Position numbers and translations under genes: made by a program. Below are positions 15,145 through 63,524 of a DNA stretch of 64,000 nucleotides, in pieces. The notes under the pieces were generated by a model. The model was not told where the DNA came from, ran no database searches, and was given only the letters and a program-made list of their open reading frames with translations. Source of the DNA: a virus (taxonomy: Duplodnaviria > Caudoviricetes); the IMG/VR virus record IMGVR_UViG_3300020577_012633, positions 59,216 to 123,215 of that record; one strand, written 5' to 3'. How positions within the stretch are numbered: the stretch's first letter is position 1; every line of letters begins with the position of its first letter.

Positions 15145-15158
15145 TTTAACCTTTCAAA

Positions 15159-15233
15159 TGCCCTCGGCGGGACTCGAACCCACAACTCTCAGAATTTTAG
15201 AGATTCCGGTTCTGCCAATTGAACTACGAGAGC
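15159..15233 (-). tRNA. Amber suppressor tRNA (CTA)
   Basis: Full cloverleaf; anticodon arm GGAAT-CTCTAAA-ATTCT. Confidence 0.88.
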
Positions 15234-16617
15234 AATATCAGTCACCTTCAAACGAAAGAGAAAAAGGCTTTCTCCACATTCCGTAATTGTTCTTAATTTT
15301 CATACCATCAATAACTTCCTGGGGAGGAGAATTTGGAATGATAGTACACTGGTCTTCATGAACATTGAAGTCTCTATCTCCTTCGGCAGTTTTCGGGTCC
15401 ATGACCTTGTAAATAGCGCCAAACCAGGAGAAAGCAAACTTACCGTCATCACACTTCCACCAGCCAATATCTCCAATTGCATCACGATTCTTGCGAATCC
15501 TTCGCATAAGAGAAAGCGCCTCTTTAGAAACTTTAACCATTTCCTTAGAGTTTATAACAACGCATCCAAGGTTATCGTTCCCAGTAGGAAAGAAACCTTT
15601 GTTCTTCTTATGAGAAGAAGGACAAAAGACAATCTTGCCATCAATAGCAAAAATATTTACAGTAAATGGATTTGCCTTTTTTGTTGGTTTTTTGGTTTTT
15701 GTTTTACTGGTTAGAATTTTTGAACCAACATTTTTATTTTTTACTGTCATATTCTTATTTCCCGTACCAAGCCGCGATTGGTTTAATAATAGCAAAAGCT
15801 GACCAACAATGATAAACATAGCCAAAATCGTGACAATTCATTCTAAAACCTTTACCAATCGTCCCGTCAAAATCTTTAATTTCTTTTTCCCAATTATTAT
15901 CTAGATCAAAGTCATTCAAGTTTGCATTTTTCAACCATGCAATTACAAAATCTTTCCAGTCGATATCAAAAGTTTTTACTTCTATTTTTCTGGCTTCAGA
16001 ATTAATCGTAAAATATTGGTCTTTTGGGTCAGTCCAAAAAAGAACAAGACCTTTTCTTGGTACAATAGTATAATGAGAGGCTCCTTTAGGACAAAGAGCA
16101 GACAAATAATCAAGACACGCATTTAGTGTCTTATAATCGCCTCTAATATCGAATAATATGTTATTCATTTTATTCTGGATCTTTTTCAATAGCGACAGAA
16201 TGACCTGCTAATCCAAAGAAAACAACATCCGCAATTGAAAGCATGAACTCTCTATGTGGAGTCCTCTTAAACTCATGCAGGAATACTTCGCAATTTTCAG
16301 CCTGAACGGCAGCTTGTTCCAGCCTAGCTTTGATCTTTTCAATTTGACCGCTATTTATGGCGATAGAACGATCAGCAAGAAGCTGTGTCATCTTGCTTCT
16401 AAAATATTCTTCTTGCTCTTTGTAAAAGGAAACTTTTTTAGTAGCAGCCTCTATCAGCAAAGAACCTGGATATGTAAATTTCCATGTTTCCCGATTTCTG
16501 TCTTTGAATTCACTGTACATTTTAAATTCCTTTTTGAAGTTTTTCTTACTCTAAATTCGCCTTGAAAAGTCTAGGGCCAATTTTGTTGATGGAGGCAATC
16601 TCAATAACCAGTCTGTA

Positions 16618-22234: not shown

Positions 22235-23323
22235 TTATATTCCCAATTTATTCGTCTCTCCAGAATTTCCAAAGAACCAATGTTCATTTGCTGTAACGTG
22301 TCCTTTTCTAACAAATTTTGCTATAGACCTTGAAAAATCTTTATAATGAAAACTATCGGCCAACCGAACAACGTATCCCTCACAGTCCTCACCATTTATT
22401 ACTGGTTTATAAAGTTCTTTAATCGTTTTTTCATTCCATATTCCTCTATAAATAATCGGTACTATTGGAATGCCAAGAAGTTGAAACCATTCGTTAGTTG
22501 TATCCCAATCAAGACAAATTAGATTGTTCCAAGCTGAAATCCCATAGCAATAACTTTCCAAATTCTTATATGGAATGGAATGTTTTGCATAAAGATTTTC
22601 TACAACAAATCTCATGTTCTCAGGAATATCATGACAAATATTCCCGTGAAAATTCTTTATCCAACTTTTTGACCAGTGTTTCTTATCTGCTAAAGAACGA
22701 GCATGAATATAGTCATTATACATTGTTGTATTTTCACCATCCATCTTGATGGTTACTACAACCTCTTTGCCATTAAATATGTCTATATTCTTTATAATGC
22801 GATCATCGTCAGTAGCTCCAGGAGACCAAGGCAAATGCCAAGTTCTTGGATACTTTACATAACGACTAAATAAATTAAGTACATTGCCTTCGTTCAATAC
22901 TTTTTGAACAGAAATATCATCAAAAAGCTCGCCTCTGAGTCTTGTCCCATTGGGCATAATAGGATTAGCCCATTTATCATACACTTGATCATCGTAAAGA
23001 TGTTCTGGTATAATCTTATCTTTTTCTAGGATTCCGCAAGCTGCTCTAATCTCTTCAACACATAAAATTGTCATTTCAGCTTTGATATGACATTCAGGGC
23101 AAAGGCTAGAGCCGTTGTTGATTAGATATCCACCGAAAGTTTCCGGGTCTATCCATAGTCGTCTTTCTAAGATATGATGAGCATCGAGATTCGTCTTAGT
23201 TGATGTCTTAAGACAAATAACGCATTTGTGATCATCACGAGCAAAAACCTTCTCTCTAAATTCGTTTCTAGAAAGAATTTTCCGTGACCGATTTACATAG
23301 TTGTTTGAATTTGACTTCATCAA
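22235..23323 (-). CDS. HNH domain fused to ATP-dependent RNA ligase (start uncertain)
   Basis: CVIC..AHHI..LCPECH; KYPRTWHLPWS, KMDGEN, EGYVVR, AKFVR. Confidence 0.85.
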   Translation of the reverse strand: MMKSNSNNYVNRSRKILSRNEFREKVFARDDHKCVICLKTSTKTNLDAHHILERRLWIDPETFGGYLINNGSSLCPECHIKAEMTILCVEEIRAACGILEKDKIIPEHLYDDQVYDKWANPIMPNGTRLRGELFDDISVQKVLNEGNVLNLFSRYVKYPRTWHLPWSPGATDDDRIIKNIDIFNGKEVVVTIKMDGENTTMYNDYIHARSLADKKHWSKSWIKNFHGNICHDIPENMRFVVENLYAKHSIPYKNLESYCYGISAWNNLICLDWDTTNEWFQLLGIPIVPIIYRGIWNEKTIKELYKPVINGEDCEGYVVRLADSFHYKDFSRSIAKFVRKGHVTANEHWFFGNSGETNKLGI

Positions 23324-38021: not shown

Positions 38022-38104
38022 AACTAGATTCCTCCTAGTTATGAATTACTGTATTATAATGGAGCAGTCCTCTAAAAAATGGAGGAAAGCTCATGTATTT
38101 TTAC

Positions 38105-38452
38105 TGGAGCCGAGGGGAATCGAACCCCTGTCTTTAGCGAATCTTTCAAGCGTTACTACAAGTTTGTTTGATGATTTATCTTATCTCAATGTCTATCATC
38201 AACGAACATACATTGAGAGCATTTTTCTCTTATCTCAAACTGACTTAATGAAAAAGGTTTGGGTCAGTTCCAGCAGATGTTTTTCGCTAAACTCATTATC
38301 TGCGTCAAAAATTTAGCGGGTAGCCTTAATTAGGCTGCCATTGCGAGAGTGCTGTTGCCAGCTAGTTTTTTGCATACTTTTTACGAGTCCAGCATGCTCC
38401 TCGACTTGCAACGTTCTTGTCTAATCCCTAAATCGAATACCAGTACGGCCCC
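38105..38452 (-). ncRNA. ssrA: tmRNA, predicted tag (A)GNSTLAMAA*
   Basis: GGGGCCG/CGGCTCCA acceptor with G3.U70, T arm, internal ORF GGC AAC AGC ACT CTC GCA ATG GCA GCC TAA. Confidence 0.92.
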
Positions 38453-40612: not shown

Positions 40613-40740
40613 TGGACGAGAAGGAATTGAACCTTCAATCTTTGATCGGCGGACCTGCAAAGGTTGTCTAGTTTTCACCAGACTGCGAAGTGAGAGCGGC
40701 AGGTTCCTAATTCAATGTTCTACCTTTGAACTAATCGTCC
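40613..40740 (-). ncRNA. tRNA-like RNA with the anticodon arm replaced by a large structured domain
   Basis: GGACGA/TCGTCC acceptor, D arm GTTC-AAAGGTA-GAAC, T arm GAAGG-TTCAATT-CCTTC. Confidence 0.7.
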
Positions 40741-47922: not shown

Positions 47923-49193
47923 GTATTGTTATTATTTTCCTAACAATGCAATTCTTATATTTTCGACTATTCCTGAAAGTTTCCTTTCATCTTCTTTGTG
48001 AGATTGATCACAAAATTCATAACCCATAAGCCCATTCTGCTGCATTCCTCCTATAACAGAAAAAGCTTCATTTACTAAATGATGAACAAGAGCCATTTGT
48101 TGTCCCGTAAAATCAAATTCAGGATTATTAGGATTCCCAGCTCCCATAAAGATTTGATCATCAAACAATATTTTGTCAGCTATGCTTTCAAGAGAATATC
48201 CGCTTCTATCAATAGCTATTTCGAGAACTGATTTCATATAGCAACCTTAGAACAATTCGCCTTTGACTGAATCATTGCACTTTCCAGTTCATTTGCGAGC
48301 TTACGAAGATTATCAGGATTTAAAGATATTCCTATAAGATTAAACTCAGCAGAATTTCTATATGATTGCAAAGTAAGTTTTTGATTGGTATAAATTCCAG
48401 TTTTAGGACCATTTCCATTATCAAAAAATTCTGTTTCAAGAAAAAGAGATTCTTCGCGATCATCATTTGGATTGAAAACGAAAACGTGTTTACCAACATT
48501 TTTGTCTCTATTTGCCATTGCCAATCCTTTACTTAAACAAGAACCTGTGTTTATTCAACCATTCTGCTTCAAGACTAATCTCATCTTCATCATCTTCTAT
48601 TTCTTCATCATCGTCACAATTTTTATCTATTATATCTTGGTCATCACAGCAAGGACCGCACCAAAGAATACCATTCCCGTAATAGTCATTAAGTTCATCT
48701 ATTGAAAAGCCACTTGTTCCGCATTTCTTACATTTCATCTTTATCCTCCTGTTTCTTTGATATATGAATATTTTTTGAGAAAAGAGAAAGCATTCCGCCA
48801 TTAAAGCTTATATAATAATCTTTCTTAAGAATATCAAGAAAAACTTTGGCGTTTGCGTCTTTTATTAATTTTTTCAAATTAGAACAAAAACTTAGAAAAT
48901 CTTTGTCATTTGGCAATAACATAATCATATCCAATAAGAAATTTCTTCTGGAACCATTATTTCTTTATTTTGTTTTGTAGCTTTTTGGGAACTTCCACCA
49001 TATCGGTTTTTTATAAACCGATCTTCTTGAAGACAATAAACAAAATCAGCAGTAGCTAGTTTGTGAGAACTAAGCTTTAGTGATTCTTTGACAGAATCGC
49101 AAACTATGGCAATGGCTTCTTTCATAGTCTTTAATCGTCAATCAAAGACTATATGCTCAAGAAATACACCAAGGAATTTATTTTATGTGCAAA

Positions 49194-49286
49194 CGGTTGA
49201 GGTTGGTATCGAAACCAACTAATCCAATAATCTTTGTTCGTCGGCCTATTTACATAGACATAGATTTGAAGAAAGATTTCTCAACC
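49194..49286 (-). ncRNA. tRNA-like RNA (acceptor + T arm only) with Y-RNA-like motif
   Basis: GGTTGAG/CTCAACC, GTTGG-TTTCGATA-CCAAC, internal GGCCGA-N8-GATTATTG. Confidence 0.6.
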
Positions 49287-49290
49287 AAAA

Positions 49291-49412
49291 TCGCTTCGGA
49301 CGGGATTCGAACCCGCCAACCTCTTCATTATGAGTGATAACCGTCAACAATCGACCTATTCGGTATGTTGGAGTCAACGGGCTTTAGCGCTCTACCATTG
49401 AGCTACGAAGCG
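49291..49412 (-). tRNA. tRNA-Met(CAT) with 48-nt Y-RNA-like insert in the anticodon stem
   Basis: CGCTTCG/CGAAGCG, D arm, CT[insert]TCA-CTCATAA-TGAAG, T arm. Confidence 0.75.
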
Positions 49413-49416
49413 AAAA

Positions 49417-49487
49417 TTGCTAGGAAGGAGTCGAACCTTCATCTCCAAGTTAAAAGCCTGGAATGTTACCAATTACAACACTAGCTA
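49417..49487 (-). tRNA. Atypical tRNA-Lys(TTT)-like
   Basis: TCCAGG-CTTTTAA-CTTGGA and T arm; imperfect acceptor, no clear 8-9 linker. Confidence 0.55.
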
Positions 49488-49642
49488 GCTGTCTTTCCAG
49501 CAGTCCAACCTCGTTTATTGTCATCATTTCAAGCCCATCGGGCTTGTGATTTACTTTAGGAGTATGGTTTATTCCTATCCTCGTTTTGCTCTTGCCAGAG
49601 ACTTATAGGAGTTTGGACTATTCCTTTGGCAATCAAGTTTGT

Positions 49643-50410
49643 TTAATTCGCAAATAATTCCTTCACTTGCAAAGCTGTAGATCGAACACTTCTGAACAGA
49701 TTCAACTGAGGCTCAATAATGTCATAATACAGATCATCAAGCTTATCCTTTTCAACATCCTCAGGGATAGAACTCTTCTCAAGTTCAATTGGCACTTGAG
49801 CATCCAGTTCTTCATAACGAGCTTTTACAACTTCAACAGGAATCTCTCCATGACGAACCTGACGAAGAAAATCCGCGTTAGGCCTAGGAAAAGTAATCGT
49901 GCCTGTCTGTAGAAGCTCAATACACTCTTCAAGCAATCTTACTGCATGGTAAGCATTCTTAATACTGTAACCATAAGCAACAATATGCTCTTTACGTTGC
50001 GCTCCAAGTTTTCTCATTTGCTCGAAATAATCTACAGCCTTTTTCCACTCTCCAAAAGCAAAACCCTGCATTGGCTTAATAAGCTTTTTAGAAACAAATA
50101 GATGTTTATTATCAATTAGTTTCTGACCAGCTTCAGTAATTTCAAGAATATGTTCTTTCGGCGCAAAAAGAATTTCTGCCGTATTAGGACTGAAACGTTC
50201 AAGCAAGTTAAAAAACTTAGGAAAAGACCATATTACTGTATCTGGATCTTTACTTTCATACTGATCCCAGTGACGACGGCCAAGAAGATATTCAGCATAA
50301 GGCACCGCAAAACCGCGAGTATCAATGTCGCTTGTTGGCGTGCTACATCCATAAAGATGAGAACCAGTTCTGACTAGCAAGTCTGGTCTCTTATAAAAAT
50401 CAGCTATCAT
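49643..50410 (-). CDS. Pol-beta superfamily nucleotidyltransferase (RlaP/YcgL-like)
   Basis: GSHLYG..TPTSDIDTRG, PN..EIL, HAVRLL. Confidence 0.85.
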   Translation of the reverse strand: MIADFYKRPDLLVRTGSHLYGCSTPTSDIDTRGFAVPYAEYLLGRRHWDQYESKDPDTVIWSFPKFFNLLERFSPNTAEILFAPKEHILEITEAGQKLIDNKHLFVSKKLIKPMQGFAFGEWKKAVDYFEQMRKLGAQRKEHIVAYGYSIKNAYHAVRLLEECIELLQTGTITFPRPNADFLRQVRHGEIPVEVVKARYEELDAQVPIELEKSSIPEDVEKDKLDDLYYDIIEPQLNLFRSVRSTALQVKELFAN

Positions 50411-50502
50411 AACTTGGTCCTCCTTTCTTCTATGAAATCAACTATTTGAACTTTTGGTTTATCAAATATTCTAAGCAATCTTGTAATAACTCGCAAAAAA
50501 AG

Positions 50503-51071
50503 TCAAGGTGACAGGATTCGAACCTGCGGACTCGTGGACCCTACCATATAAAATCATTAGCCCATTTAATATTCTTTTTTTGCCCGTTTTTAGGCTTTTC
50601 AATTCTCACGCATAACATTCTTTTATTTTCAAATTGTTCTGGCCCAAAACACAGGATTTTATCTATTTTTGGAACATAAACAAGAACTAAATCAATATCT
50701 TTTGAAGAATAAGTATCATGTTTATATTTAGTAAGAGCTGTTTTTCTTGCCATTTCAATTCTAACAGAACCTTCACTATCTTTAGATACTTTCCCGTCTC
50801 CATATTTACATTGAATCTTTAGTATTTTGCCATTATTTTCAATAAGTAAATCGTACACTGATTCTGTTGTGGGTATTGATACTATGAAATCTTTTTCCAT
50901 AGCTCTTTGTTGTATCTTAAGCACTGCTAACTGACCTTTATTATTTGTATTCATTTAAATTCCTATATTAGTATTAGAACCTTGTGGTATAGTTACATAG
51001 GGTTATTGAATATCCTTCTTATACAAATAAAATTACTAACCACGCACTCTACCAAGCTGAGCTACACCCTG
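50503..51071 (-). tRNA. Split tRNA-Pro (reconstructed AGG); halves 51036-51071 and 50503-50543
   Basis: Halves join to CGTGG-TTAGGGT-CCACG; TAG duplicated at the junctions. Confidence 0.8.
50541..50954 (-). CDS. PD-(D/E)XK endonuclease (I-Ssp6803I-like family)
   Basis: KGQLA, VSIP...YDLLIE..KIQCKY, IDLVLVY. Confidence 0.8.
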   Translation of the reverse strand: MNTNNKGQLAVLKIQQRAMEKDFIVSIPTTESVYDLLIENNGKILKIQCKYGDGKVSKDSEGSVRIEMARKTALTKYKHDTYSSKDIDLVLVYVPKIDKILCFGPEQFENKRMLCVRIEKPKNGQKKNIKWANDFIW

Positions 51072-51594
51072 AAAACTTAAGCCTCACTCATACCAATTAA
51101 CATGTAACTTTTTCAATCTCGCAAGCTGTATGATAGTCCTTATCAATAGCTGATTCAATCTCATCCATTTTTTTCAAATAACATTCTATAAGATCAGGAT
51201 CTTCTAGACCATCAACAATATTAGACAAAGAAATCATTTCATCAAGACCTGCTACAGTCTTAAGGATATATTCTTTTTGCAACTGAATAAGCTTTATTTT
51301 CTTTTCGTTATTTTGATTAGTGCTACTCATGTAACATTAATCGTCTTATTTTTTACGAGATTTTAGGCTATCACGCCATTTATCGCTTGTATGATATTGC
51401 CACAAATTACATTTTTTACACTTATAGCCATGTTCATATATCTTTTTCTTTAAATTCAAAATACTAACTAAAGGGTGCAATGCACATTTAACATAAGTCA
51501 TTGTTTTTTTACAATTAGCACACTTTACTAATGTATTTTCATCTACATCTATTACTCGATATAGATTATTCTTTTTACGGATAGATCCCATAAG

Positions 51595-51668
51595 TCAGAA
51601 TAACAGGATTTGAACCTGTAGCCTTCTCGTCCCGAACGAGATGCTCTACCAAATTGAGCTACATTCTG
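51595..51668 (-). tRNA. tRNA-Pro(CGG)
   Basis: TCTCG-TTCGGGA-CGAGA. Confidence 0.9.
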
Positions 51669-51675
51669 AATTTAT

Positions 51676-51981
51676 TTATGAAGAAACTTTTTGAATGGCT
51701 TCTTTTATTTTGGCCTCAGTCTGAAGACCAACTAGCTTTTCAGCAAAAACTCCATCTTTGAAAATTACAATAGAAGGAATAGATGTTACATTATACGTTT
51801 TTGCAAGATCTGTATTTTCTTCAACATTCGCTTTCAAAAAGGTAACATTTGATATTTCTTTAGAAAGCTTTGTTAGAAGAGGCATAAGCATTTTACATGG
51901 CATGCACCAATCTGCCCAAAAATCAACAACAACTATAGGATAGTCTGAAGGTTCAAATTTAGATTCTATTATTTCTTTCAT
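51676..51981 (-). CDS. trxA: Thioredoxin
   Basis: DFWADWCMPC, SIP. Confidence 0.9.
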   Translation of the reverse strand: MKEIIESKFEPSDYPIVVVDFWADWCMPCKMLMPLLTKLSKEISNVTFLKANVEENTDLAKTYNVTSIPSIVIFKDGVFAEKLVGLQTEAKIKEAIQKVSS

Positions 51982-52006
51982 TTTTTACTCACAATAACGA
52001 ACAAAG

Positions 52007-52081
52007 TCAGGGAGACAGGATTCGAACCTGCGACTTCTTGGACCCAAACCAAGCGCTCTAGCCAAGCTGAGCTACACCCTG
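52007..52081 (-). tRNA. tRNA-Pro(TGG)
   Basis: CTTGG-TTTGGGT-CCAAG. Confidence 0.93.
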
Positions 52082-52161
52082 AAAGCCCGTCCTTGATTCT
52101 GGTCACTCTTTCGAGGAGAGCAGAGACGGGAAGTCAGCACGCGTGCTGACATTATATGTTG

Positions 52162-52288
52162 CTGACAAATATAGGGCCGTATCTAGGAGTTTCAGAATAC
52201 TGGAAGCCATTGCTGGATAGTCTCTTTATCTGAGTCATAAAGACCACTTCTACGCATAATGTTAACCTAGAAAACATCGACTTGTCAG
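52162..52288 (-). ncRNA. Y-RNA-like ncRNA
   Basis: CTGACAAGT/ATTTGTCAG closing stem, GTCGA-N9-GGTTAACA. Confidence 0.65.
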
Positions 52289-52304
52289 TGACTACTAAAA
52301 CTAA

Positions 52305-52435
52305 AGACAAATATGTTGTTGCATTTAGCGATCTCAGAAACTGTACCTCATTCCGAGGCTAGGTCATCTCTGATGAACAACCTACTGAACGAACTTCTCC
52401 TATTAGTATGTTAAGCTAAACGCTCCGACTTGTCT
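52305..52435 (-). ncRNA. Y-RNA-like ncRNA
   Basis: AGACAAGT/ATTTGTCT closing stem, GTCGG-N8-GCTTAACA; GTCGATA motif just upstream. Confidence 0.65.
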
Positions 52436-52647
52436 AATAAAGTATCGACATTTCTATAAAGAAATCTCGAACTACACGCTTTTCAACCTTGGGCCGCTAC
52501 AACATTTCCTTTATCATCATATATCAAAACTTTACCATTTTGATCCACTCCAAAAACTCTTTTCCCTTTTGGAGCTTTTAAATCTGTTTCATATTTTTTA
52601 GTCTTATTATTGAACTTTACATTAACTTGTTTGGCTTTTTTCATAAG

Positions 52648-52720
52648 TGGAGACTACGGGAGTCGAACCCGTGACCTTTTGCATGCCATGCAAACGCTCT
52701 GCCAACTGAGCTAAATCCCC
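52648..52720 (-). tRNA. tRNA-Ala(GGC)
   Basis: TTTGC-ATGGCAT-GCAAA; G3.U70. Confidence 0.93.
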
Positions 52721-52744
52721 AAAAAGGAGGGATAAAACCCTCCT
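52721..52744 (-). terminator. Intrinsic terminator after the RF gene
   Basis: AGGAGGG/CCCTCCT hairpin followed by TTTT. Confidence 0.7.
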
Positions 52745-52749
52745 ACTAT

Positions 52750-53500
52750 TTACTTCAATATGATATCAAGATTTCCCTTTATAACATCTTTGATATCATA
52801 TGTTTTCTTGCCTGTCAAATGATCAGAAACATAGCCCTTATAGAAACAATAAGTTCTTCTAGCTCCGCCTCTTCCTGTATTGCTGAGAATGTTTTTACGC
52901 TTTTCAGCATAATCCTTATTTTGTTCAGCAAACTTCATTTCTTGAATACGTCCGCACAGAAGCTCATAAGCATGAGCTTTATTCTGCTGAGGAGAACGAT
53001 GAACCTGAGACTTAACAAAGATTCCTGTTGGAATATGTTTCATTCTACATGCACTCTTGCATGTATTAACTCCTTGACCACCTGGTCCTGAAGCATTTTG
53101 AAACATAATCTCAATGTCTTCGTCTCTAATAATCGCTCCTTTGAAAGCAAATATTGGCAAGATTCCAACTGTTACAGTTGAAGTATGACGACGACCGCTT
53201 CTTTCGGAAGGAGGACATCTTTGAACAACATGCTTGCCTGATTCATTTTCAAAAGCAGATAATACATTTTTACCGCTTATTTCAAGAGTAGAAGAACCGT
53301 AATCAACATCAACAATCGAAATGGTTAGGTTCTTCTTTGTTGCGTATCTAACATATATTTCGGAGAGTTCGTGAACAAAGTTTTTAGCATCTTCTCCACC
53401 CTCTCCTGCTCTTATTTCAATAAGAATAGAAGAAGGGTCAAAGAGACTCCTGTGCCTTATGCTGAAGGCCATCGTTCCAGCGATTTCTGTTACTATTCAT
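52750..53500 (-). CDS. Class I peptide release factor homolog (lacks domain 1) with a predicted +1 programmed frameshift
   Basis: EIRAGEGG, GRRHTS, GPGGQ; AGGAG-TCT-CTT-TGA-C at 53451-53437 in frame with ATG 53500. Confidence 0.85.
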
Positions 53501-60687: not shown

Positions 60688-60770
60688 ATTCTTTTATCGC
60701 CAAAAAAAGAATATTACTCTGCAATCCACAAGCTTCCTCCCGGAATCGAACCGAGTTATCTGAGATACGA

Positions 60771-61433
60771 TTACTCAGACCATCTAGGACAATGAAATTT
60801 ACCGTATTCCTGTATCGCTCCAAACACCATTTGAACTATTTCGGTGCTATGAACGGAAATTATACAAATACCATATGGAAGTTTGGTTTTATTTTGTTTT
60901 TTAGGATAATATTCGCTTTTTATTGTTACTTTTCTTTTGTTTTGAGAAAGAAGATTAAGTGACTTTTTCCAATATTCTTCTACTTCTTCAATAGAAAAAC
61001 CACAATCGAGCCTGCAATTAACTTTCCATATAACCTCTTTACTGGATATATTGAAATGTTTTTGCAAAAAATCTAAAAACACTTTTAACAAGTTGCAATC
61101 AGAATTACAAATTTGTAAACTATTGCGACCTTTTGATCCTTCACCCCAGTAAAGCATGCAACCTGCTATAAAACTTGGATCAAGTTTACGAGCAATGGAT
61201 GCCCCCATTTTTTGCCACTCAAGTCGCTTTGCTAAAGCATCAGAAGATCTTTTTACAGAAGCCATAGTTGAACTTCTTTTTAGTAAAAAAATTTTCTGTT
61301 CCTCAGAAATTAGAATTTCTCTAACCCATAAAGAAACACTAGACTTAGAAACATTAAGAATAGAAGCAATTTGAGTTATTGAAATACCAGATTTCCTGAG
61401 TTCTATTGCTTTATTTTTTAACTTCTTTTTCAT
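60771..61433 (-). CDS. HTH + LAGLIDADG-like endonuclease
   Basis: N-terminal HTH (IASILNVSKSSVSLWV), AGCMLYWGEG, NSD..L. Confidence 0.65.
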   Translation of the reverse strand: MKKKLKNKAIELRKSGISITQIASILNVSKSSVSLWVREILISEEQKIFLLKRSSTMASVKRSSDALAKRLEWQKMGASIARKLDPSFIAGCMLYWGEGSKGRNSLQICNSDCNLLKVFLDFLQKHFNISSKEVIWKVNCRLDCGFSIEEVEEYWKKSLNLLSQNKRKVTIKSEYYPKKQNKTKLPYGICIISVHSTEIVQMVFGAIQEYGKFHCPRWSE

Positions 61434-61499
61434 TTGATACTCTCTTTTTAGAACCTTGTGCTATAGTTATATACTAGGAGTATCATATGAATCCTTCAA

Positions 61500-61574
61500 A
61501 GTTCTTGGCAGGACTTGAACCCGCAACCTCCTTATTACGAGTAAGGCACTCTACCAAAATTGAGCTACAAGAAC
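61500..61574 (-). tRNA. tRNA-Thr(CGT), carried inside the insertion
   Basis: CCTTA-CTCGTAA-TAAGG, complete cloverleaf. Confidence 0.92.
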
Positions 61575-61835
61575 ATATACGAACTCAGCGCATCGCCAGC
61601 AATGCTTAGGAAGCATTTCTTATGAGCTTCATCATCATTTTGTAACACATAGGTATTGAATTCTTATAAGAAAAAGAAAAAGCATGTTTTAGATTTTCTA
61701 TTTTGCGAAAACCATACTCTTTACCTGTCAAGGAAAGTATAGCATAATAAAACAAAATTAGAAATCGCACTGTTCTCATGACAATGTATACAATTACTTA
61801 AAATGTTTTCCTATATGTAAAATAAATTTACATAA

Positions 61836-62343: not shown

Positions 62344-63240
62344 TTATAGTATTTTTTCTAAATATTCTTCAATCAATTCTTTACCAGATAAGCCATTAAT
62401 AAATCTTTCTGGAATTGATCTGTATCCGTAAAAAGCACCAGCAAATTGTCCTGCTATTGCTCCAGTTGTATCGGCATCATTACCTAGATTTACAGCTTTG
62501 AGAACAATATCTTCAAAAGAATCGCCAGTAGCAAAAGCCCATAGAGAAGAATGCAAACTACTTACAACATTGAAATCGCCATGAGCTTCTTCTGTGAGAA
62601 AATTTCCATTTGCTATAGCCCTAATCTCTTCATGAAGATCAAGATTTCTAGTCTTTTCCCAATCTTTGTCCAAAACAATCTCTTTGGCTAGACCGTTCAA
62701 CAAACCTGCAAGCACAACTGCCATGTATTCGCAAGCTGATTTGCATACAGGACTATTATGGGTTGTAGAACTTGATTCATTTGCGAAATTTACAATATTT
62801 TCATCATCGAAATACTTTATGCAAACTGGAGCAAGTCTCATGATAGAACCGTTACCTCTAGTATCAACCAGGCTTGATTCCAATTGACCTGTTTGAATAT
62901 AATCTTTAATAGCTTGTCTAGTAGTGCCGCCTATTCCAAAACACTTACCAACAGTCGTATATTTGCCATTATTATACCAATCAACATACTTATCAAGTTG
63001 ATCTTTTCTGGAATGACCATTGGAAAGAGAATCAGCAAGAGCTAAAGCCATGCTAGTATCATCAGTCCATTCACCAGCTTTTGAACCAGGTTGTCCCCAA
63101 TTTCTTGGTTTTCCATTTCTATAACCTGTTACTATGGGAAACGTGCCTGCTTTTTTCTTTTCTATAGGAGTTCCAAGGGCATCTCCAATAGCAAGGCCAT
63201 AAAAACAGCCTTTTTTACGATCACGAATATCTGTTGTCAT
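62344..63240 (-). CDS. ADP-ribosylglycohydrolase (DraG/ARH family)
   Basis: GDALG, WTDDT, GNGSIMR, DADTTGAIAG. Confidence 0.93.
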   Translation of the reverse strand: MTTDIRDRKKGCFYGLAIGDALGTPIEKKKAGTFPIVTGYRNGKPRNWGQPGSKAGEWTDDTSMALALADSLSNGHSRKDQLDKYVDWYNNGKYTTVGKCFGIGGTTRQAIKDYIQTGQLESSLVDTRGNGSIMRLAPVCIKYFDDENIVNFANESSSTTHNSPVCKSACEYMAVVLAGLLNGLAKEIVLDKDWEKTRNLDLHEEIRAIANGNFLTEEAHGDFNVVSSLHSSLWAFATGDSFEDIVLKAVNLGNDADTTGAIAGQFAGAFYGYRSIPERFINGLSGKELIEEYLEKIL

Positions 63241-63274
63241 GTTCAAAGTATAGACAAAAAGAATGCACAAGTAA

Positions 63275-63451: not shown

Positions 63452-63524
63452 CGGTATGGGACGGTTTTGACCCGCCATCCTTCCACTATTCAAGTGGTCG
63501 CTCTACATTTGGAGCTACCATACC
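63452..63524 (-). tRNA. tRNA-Phe(GAA), atypical D and T loops
   Basis: CCAC-TTGAATA-GTGG; T loop GTCAAAA. Confidence 0.65.

Follow-up and report, generated by a model that had tools for sequence, protein, structure and literature searches.

A predicted I-Ssp6803I-type endonuclease gene splits a tRNA-Pro gene of a huge phage with no detectable group I core

Results

A tRNA-Pro gene interrupted in its anticodon loop

In the tRNA array of a huge phage, a tRNA-Pro gene is split within its anticodon loop by a 495-nt insert that contains no group I core and whose single ORF appears to encode a PD-(D/E)XK homing endonuclease. We consider it likely that this insert is a ribozyme-less homing cassette, which sits in its own target and silences a redundant tRNA-Pro. 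What is novel is the presence of such a gene in a tRNA gene without its intron, the kind of nuclease being already known.

The DNA analysed (the window) comprises the final 64 kb of a viral contig of 123 kb in IMG/VR, for which CheckV gives a completeness of ~24%; the contig is therefore a fragment of a huge phage genome. Nearly all genes of the window lie on the minus strand, and its region from 45 to 64 kb holds a tRNA array interspersed with small ORFs. The features of the split gene and of two intact tRNA-Pro genes are as follows (positions are those of the window).

51036..51071, minus strand: 5' half of the split tRNA, with the acceptor 5' strand, D arm and anticodon-stem 5' strand (sequence, ARAGORN, rebuilt cloverleaf)
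50541..51035, minus strand: insert of 495 nt, an 81-nt leader plus a 414-nt ORF (sequence)
50955..51035, minus strand: AT-rich leader of the cassette, 81 nt, 23.5% GC (homology to other leaders)
50541..50954, minus strand: 414-nt gene for a predicted PD-(D/E)XK homing endonuclease of 137 aa, I-Ssp6803I type (Pfam, fold, motif)
50503..50540, minus strand: 3' half, with the anticodon-stem 3' strand, variable loop, T arm and acceptor 3' strand (ARAGORN, cloverleaf)
51036..51038 and 50541..50543, minus strand: 3-bp TAG direct repeat, first and second copy, the second being the ORF stop (sequence)
52006..52081, minus strand: intact tRNA-Pro(UGG), the 91% identical paralogue of the split tRNA, ~1 kb away (alignment)
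51594..51668, minus strand: intact tRNA-Pro(CGG) (tRNA search)

With introns allowed, ARAGORN reports the split gene, together with its 495-nt intron, at c[50502,51071]. The coordinates on the minus strand (36-nt 5' half, 495-nt insert, 38-nt 3' half) confirm the anatomy of the original prediction, namely a 495-bp insert between TAG flanks, made of a 414-bp ORF and about 80 nt of leader, in which the ORF stop is itself the junction. The 5' half ends in ...GGTTAG, its loop reaching U33-A34-G35, and the 3' half opens with G36-G37-U38 and closes at A73, CCA not being encoded. Because TAG stands at both junctions, there are four possible registers for the joint; the junction repeat can also be read as TGGT(T)AG, that is, as 6-7 bp with one base missing.

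When the halves are joined in silico they yield a clean 74-nt cloverleaf, called as tRNA-Pro(AGG). The prediction that the halves pair well is thus upheld, but its anticodon AGG stands less firmly, as A34 is deduced from the sequence: if one T was replaced by the insert, instead of TAG being duplicated, the ancestral anticodon would have been UGG and the gene a second tRNA-Pro(UGG). ARAGORN's own label for the split gene, Thr(AGU) with an intron at 37/38, was rejected; the tool forces the canonical position, and this reading discards the GG that aligns with the paralogue tRNA-Pro(UGG). A Pro identity agrees with the alignment to the paralogue and with C1-G72, A73 and G35-G37.

The rebuilt tRNA is 91% identical to tRNA-Pro(UGG), far beyond chance, as against at most 70% for all other tRNAs of the window. 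The two copies differ at position 34, by a compensatory change of the 28-42 pair and by a better 6-67 pair in the split copy, whose halves are therefore free of decay. Neither empty-site alleles, which had been proposed as a means of confirming the anticodon, nor relatives carrying the same split were recovered: a blastn comparison of the locus with 50,697 phage records yielded nothing, an exact 31-mer from the 3' half had no match in IMG/VR, and the rebuilt 15-nt anticodon arm had 7 matches in IMG/VR, none of them in a tRNA.

The insert encodes a predicted PD-(D/E)XK homing endonuclease

The ORF ends with the sense codon TGG followed by the stop TAG (50543-50541), which touches the 3' half. 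It matches the Pfam family PDDEXK_5 (PF11645) with an E-value of 2.6e-25 (89.5 bits against a cut-off of 26.1) over its full length, residues 1-135 falling on profile positions 1-135 of 138. Its sequence aligns weakly with I-Ssp6803I (PDB 2OST). An AlphaFold2 model built from 13 homologues has a pLDDT of 90.4, and the top four Foldseek matches are the four chains of 2OST (TM 0.69-0.78, with 0.77 for the best match; E-values down to 7e-9). D35, Q48 and K50 are invariant in the 13 homologues and align with the YDL...KVQVK block of 2OST. Judged by Pfam family, modelled fold and catalytic motif, the product can be assigned to the I-Ssp6803I type of PD-(D/E)XK homing endonucleases, in agreement with the original prediction, and the nuclease is intact and probably catalytically active. 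Its closest homologues are P0002 (69% identity, on a 26.5-kb contig) and P0003-P0005. The cassette has a GC content of 28% against 35.7% for the genome, which places it in the lowest 4% of windows. Since the final W of the ORF is kept in homologues that lie outside introns, the 3' end of the insert is protein-coding sequence, and not RNA core.

The insert has no group I core

I-Ssp6803I belongs to the group I intron of the tRNA-fMet gene of Synechocystis PCC 6803 (Bonocora and Shub 2001, as cited in PMC3984707; Table 1 of PMC1995217). That intron measures 655 nt and has a 150-aa ORF (PMC1995217), leaving ~205 nt for the core. Only 81 nt of the phage insert are non-coding and the ORF ends at the junction, which is less than the ~200 nt that a group I core needs. 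A search of positions 49000-53000 with 4227 Rfam models detected no group I, group II or self-cleaving ribozyme at E<=10, and the 616-nt locus alone, under the laxest Rfam filters, gave no family of these three kinds at E<=10 either. The positive control came from three bacterial loci (L033, L037 and L043), retrieved as encoding homologues of the ORF and then searched with Rfam in the same way as the phage locus, where RF00028 was found at 78-88 bits beside the homologous ORFs. The folding of the whole locus is no better than that of shuffles (MFE z-score -1.0). The earlier claim that there was no room for a ribozyme, and that cmsearch would come out negative, therefore holds.

A leader shared with cassettes outside introns

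The leader carries the motif GAAGGAT (51018-51012) and, ~30 nt on, CACAAGGTTCTAA (50986-50974), and has an AGGA ribosome-binding site 6 nt ahead of the ATG. An exact 13-mer of the leader occurs at only two places in the window, the Pro cassette and a second cassette in a tRNA-Thr gene (described below), and the motif pair recurs nowhere else in the genome but in this Thr cassette (60731-61614). The leader is also homologous to those ahead of homologous ORFs in L003, L009 and L010; in L003 and L010 these begin immediately behind a complete tRNA, in L009 behind a tRNA 3' fragment. Common to the Thr cassette and to cassettes after complete tRNAs, the leader is neither intron-specific nor a ribozyme remnant. 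A consensus scan detected no sigma-70 promoter in it, and RNAalifold no convincing conserved hairpin (4 pairs, -0.16 kcal/mol).

Within positions 50974-51003 (minus strand) the leader contains ACCCUA and ACCAC, 9 nt apart; read together, these two blocks reverse-complement the 11-nt core (GUGGUUAGGGU) of the rebuilt anticodon arm exactly. This pairing of leader and target core is equalled by 2.6% of shuffles, and in the Thr cassette the pairing of leader to junction is not better than in shuffles. The split copy of the target in the leader could be chance, an autorepression operator or a guide-like pairing.

As expected of intronless homing, the cassette carries signals of its own and the same cassette is found outside introns, leader and ribosome-binding site being common to those that follow complete tRNAs. 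Intronless homing also implies a position between genes without breaking one, whereas this insert lies inside the anticodon loop of a tRNA.

Homologues are mostly free-standing and lie beside tRNA genes

Protein searches and locus scans, including a scan of genome contigs with a 5-sequence alignment, turned up homologues at ~25 loci of phages, metagenomes and bacterial MAGs. At nearly all of these the gene is free-standing and sits immediately upstream of an intact tRNA gene: the homologue of Streptomyces phage Forrest stands before tRNA-Asp, that of L022 before tRNA-Lys and those of L035-L044 before tRNA-Asp, Gly or Pro, and that of Synechococcus phage Sf-FR1 overlaps tRNA-Val. In four loci (L004, L005, L034 and L022) the W codon at the end of the ORF reaches into the first bases of the tRNA downstream, into which the frame runs without a stop codon of its own (at the ORF end in L004, L005 and L034, and at L022:1588-1626).

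Group I introns lie next to homologous ORFs at bacterial tRNA genes in L033:1201-1910, L037:1201-1918 and L043:1201-1780, which is the collaborative-homing arrangement reviewed in PMC3984707. The occurrence of this arrangement among close homologues points to anticodon loops as the targets of the clade. The notion that nucleases of this type sit in group I introns is thus true of I-Ssp6803I itself, but the close relatives of the phage ORF are mostly free-standing beside tRNA genes.

Orphan tRNA 3' fragments, whose matching 5' half is absent, stand after the ORF or after the following tRNA at three loci:

L009:1-700: orphan-fragment site
L005:2380-2540: orphan-fragment site
L003:1232-1340 and 2406-2460: orphan-fragment sites

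In L003, further orphan tRNA fragments are found upstream; L009 has two PDDEXK_5 genes in tandem, the second with an in-frame TAG; and in L005 the T arm and acceptor end of an intact tRNA-like gene are repeated after it. These phage tRNA arrays carry the scars of destructive events, and such outcomes are thus common.

A sister cassette carries a spare tRNA

Some 10 kb from the Pro cassette, on the same contig, a second tRNA gene is split:

60731..61614, minus strand: tRNA-Thr(CGU) split by 812 bp, with halves at 61614-61577 and 60764-60731 (sequence, rebuilt cloverleaf)

Its halves rebuild a clean tRNA and the split again lies in the anticodon loop. The insert consists, in this order, of an intact replacement tRNA-Thr(CGU) at 61500-61574, with the same anticodon CGU and a different anticodon arm, the homologous leader, and a 220-aa HTH ORF at 60771-61433. 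This ORF differs from that of the Pro cassette: Pfam gives an HTH domain only, an AG...GEGS motif merely resembles LAGLIDADG, and the AlphaFold2 single-sequence model has a pLDDT of 50. Its stop abuts the 3' half, the codons at its end regenerate the anticodon stem's 5' strand, and the duplicated target is ~12 bp long with two extra bases. Since a replacement tRNA would be needless if the inserts were spliced out, the spare tRNA speaks against any repair of these insertions at the level of RNA.

Other genes of the window

Elsewhere in the window we observed a phage tmRNA at 38102-38452 (minus strand; Rfam RF00023, 125.8 bits), a tRNA with the amber-suppressor anticodon CUA at 15158-15234 (minus strand; labelled 'Pyl' by ARAGORN), and a tRNA at 63452-63524 (minus strand) which scores 43.3 bits with Rfam and was missed by ARAGORN. 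A 240-aa ORF with PCRF and RF-1 domains, resembling a short release factor, lies within the tRNA array at 52750-53472 (minus strand), and genes for a thioredoxin and an ADP-ribosylglycohydrolase are found at 51676-51981 and 62344-63270.

Other explanations of the split gene

The original prediction had put forward, next to a disruptive insertion, a protein-spliced intron that could use the phage RNA ligase. In such a case an endoribonuclease of phage or host would cut the pre-tRNA at both junctions, each with its UAG; the halves, still paired through the acceptor and anticodon stems, would be sealed by RtcB or a PF09414-family ligase, RlaP perhaps trimming or filling. We hold this to be unlikely, and slightly more doubtful still that the insert is a true intron of a bacterial virus removed by protein, with the two cuts freeing the endonuclease mRNA and an RtcB or PF09414 ligase resealing the loop. 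The genes that could take part are an RtcB-type RNA ligase gene (G000:C1:1932-3062, outside the window; E 2e-107) and the following:

49643..50410, minus strand: RlaP gene (RNA-ligase-associated Pol-beta nucleotidyltransferase), adjoining the split tRNA (Pfam PF10127, E 2e-14)
22235-23323 of the window, minus strand: RNA_ligase family gene (Pfam PF09414)
G000:C1:42917-43441: second RNA_ligase family gene (Pfam PF09414)

This set speaks for protein splicing, as does the finding of two intact halves that join exactly although a ribozyme is absent. RtcB, Rnl and RlaP are, however, standard RNA-repair genes of jumbo phages (PMC7824862, which also covers the role of RlaP within this set), so that RNA repair accounts for them as well. 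They are accompanied here by Y-RNA-like genes and a Ro60 (TROVE) gene (G000:C1:31870-32775, outside the window, loci L016 and L045; E 7.7e-32), and the phage RtcB, ligases and RlaP fit a Ro60/Y-RNA repair module.

The junctions themselves show no signals for protein splicing. When the two were co-folded, no bulge-helix-bulge (BHB) was formed; the anticodon stem is kept, a bulge of 6 nt appears only on the 5' side, and a weak G-U helix encloses the 3' junction. In favour of splicing, the end of the insert restores part of the anticodon stem's 5' strand (3 bp here against 5 bp in the Thr cassette), but pairing of the insert's first 25 nt with its last 25 nt is no better than in shuffles (-6.4 vs -5.75 +/- 1.9 kcal/mol). 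EndA (PF01974) is absent from the 123-kb contig, which covers ~24% of the phage genome. The spare tRNA of the sister cassette also stands against splicing. With no BHB, no significant end-joining helix and no EndA on the contig, this part of the original prediction obtained no positive support.

Two further candidates for intron-bearing tRNAs, flagged by ARAGORN and Rfam, would have strengthened the case for splicing and were dropped. One, at 40613-40740 of the window (minus strand; Rfam tRNA, 43 bits; intron-bearing tRNA-Pro(AGG) according to ARAGORN), has its anticodon loop replaced by ~57-62 nt with a GGUCCG helix and is probably a Y-RNA-like gene. The other, at G000:C1:33441-33564, is a 124-nt tRNA-shaped RNA with ~35 extra nt in the anticodon loop and a Y-RNA-type UUGACC...GGUCGA helix. 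Because of these helices in their inserts, and because the second lies directly beside the Ro60/TROVE gene, both read better as tRNA-shaped Y RNAs.

A cryptic or degenerate self-splicing group I intron, whose catalytic core would overlap the coding sequence, is very improbable. One of the four registers does obey the group I end rule, in that the 5' splice site follows a U and the intron closes with a G (...GGU|UAG...UGG|UAG). The leader's ACCAC complements the 5' exon end GUGGU and its ACCCUA the 3' junction, the two standing in the order that a guide sequence would have, and I-Ssp6803I itself resides in a group I intron. Yet ACCAC, the sole candidate guide, would form a U-A pair at the splice site and not the G-U wobble; RF00028 gave no match at E<=10 on the isolated 616 nt, in a search whose positive control succeeded; and the last 150 nt of the ORF are A-rich coding sequence, with a C-terminal W that is kept in free-standing homologues. 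The overall fold no better than shuffles, and the use of the same leader by cassettes that are not introns, also count against it. Finally, the record is a metagenome-assembled contig of which a second copy was not retrieved, but that an assembly artefact or chimeric contig placed the endonuclease gene between tRNA pieces is scarcely credible, since no mis-join would make two halves fit together exactly at a single nucleotide position, with a 3-bp repeat, and a second cassette of like design lies 10 kb off on the same contig.

Discussion

The reading that we favour is a ribozyme-less homing cassette in its own target, by which the tRNA-Pro copy has most likely been disabled. Of the two possibilities raised originally, it is the recent disruptive insertion that is favoured by the free-standing relatives with the same leader, the spare tRNA of the sister cassette, the orphan fragments and the 91% identical paralogue.

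The DNA site of I-Ssp6803I is the near-palindromic anticodon arm of a tRNA gene, which the enzyme cuts to leave 3-nt 3' overhangs. For the phage element we infer the target site, the homing and the lack of splicing. The nuclease would recognise the near-palindromic DNA of the anticodon stem-loop in the cassette-free allele of a co-infecting relative and cut within the anticodon loop of this intact allele; the break would then be repaired from the cassette-bearing allele, with the two tRNA halves as homology arms, and the split site would no longer be cleavable. The cassette would supply its own leader and ribosome-binding site, nothing would remove the insert from the RNA, and the tRNA copy would thus be silenced. 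Capture of the cassette at a cut with a 3-nt overhang could have produced the TAG repeat, in which case the stop codon would be derived from the target; an equally good source of the repeat would be microhomology between the ORF end (TGGTA) and the target (TGGTTAG).

The cost of losing this copy would be low, because the 91% identical tRNA-Pro(UGG), which is likely to be a functional backup, tRNA-Pro(CGG) and the tRNAs of the host remain. Undecayed halves, an intact ORF and the low GC content of the cassette fit a recent invasion.

Several observations count against silencing. Undecayed halves that sum exactly to a tRNA are also what a spliced intron looks like, although this is partly a matter of ascertainment, as detection requires intact halves. 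In the long ORFs of the phage, CCU is the commonest Pro codon (53%), and there could be an advantage in retaining a tRNA that reads it. Genes for RtcB and for two members of the PF09414 ligase family are present, with RlaP next door to the split gene, and the pairing of leader and target is equalled by only 2.6% of shuffles.

Homing endonucleases are thought to survive inside genes only if a self-splicing intron or an intein hides the damage. Archaea have protein-spliced BHB introns, in rRNA and tRNA genes, that carry LAGLIDADG endonuclease genes, and BHB-type protein splicing is not known in bacteria or bacterial phages. Like these archaeal introns (for background on tRNA introns, see PMC4090602), the phage element is a ribozyme-less, endonuclease-bearing insert in a stable-RNA gene with an RtcB-type ligase available; unlike them, it has no BHB motif and no EndA was found, and under the Pro reading its position is not 37/38.

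With I-Ssp6803I the phage ORF shares the family PF11645, the modelled fold, the D...QxK motif, a tRNA host gene and the position in the anticodon loop. The Synechocystis element, however, has 655 nt with ~205 nt of ribozyme, whereas the phage insert has 495 nt, an 81-nt non-coding leader and no detectable group I core; the stop of the phage ORF is the junction itself, and the host is a huge phage and not a cyanobacterium. The resemblance to collaborative homing lies in the arrangement shown by close homologues, and the difference is that here the endonuclease gene itself occupies the anticodon loop, with no intron to make the insertion harmless. The free-standing homing endonuclease SegB of the phage T4 tRNA region (PMC2330249) is likewise a selfish nuclease gene in a phage tRNA cluster, with its own expression signals, that drives the inheritance of its neighbourhood, and most relatives of the ORF are placed like SegB, between tRNA genes. 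SegB, in contrast, is a GIY-YIG enzyme and lies between genes, while the phage PD-(D/E)XK gene lies inside a tRNA and breaks it.

In this phage, the one PD-(D/E)XK homing family has a member that sits naked in its presumed target. A single protein clade shows all the stages that figure in models of mobile-intron origin, including free-standing genes beside intact tRNAs and a gene alone inside a tRNA, and the sister Thr cassette answers the damage differently, by carrying a spare tRNA. In phage tRNA arrays the invasion of dispensable or redundant genes by selfish nucleases can be studied in a natural system, as can array remodelling and the fragment litter that accompanies it. If protein splicing were true of this locus, protein-dependent tRNA splicing would extend to bacterial viruses, outside archaea and eukaryotes.
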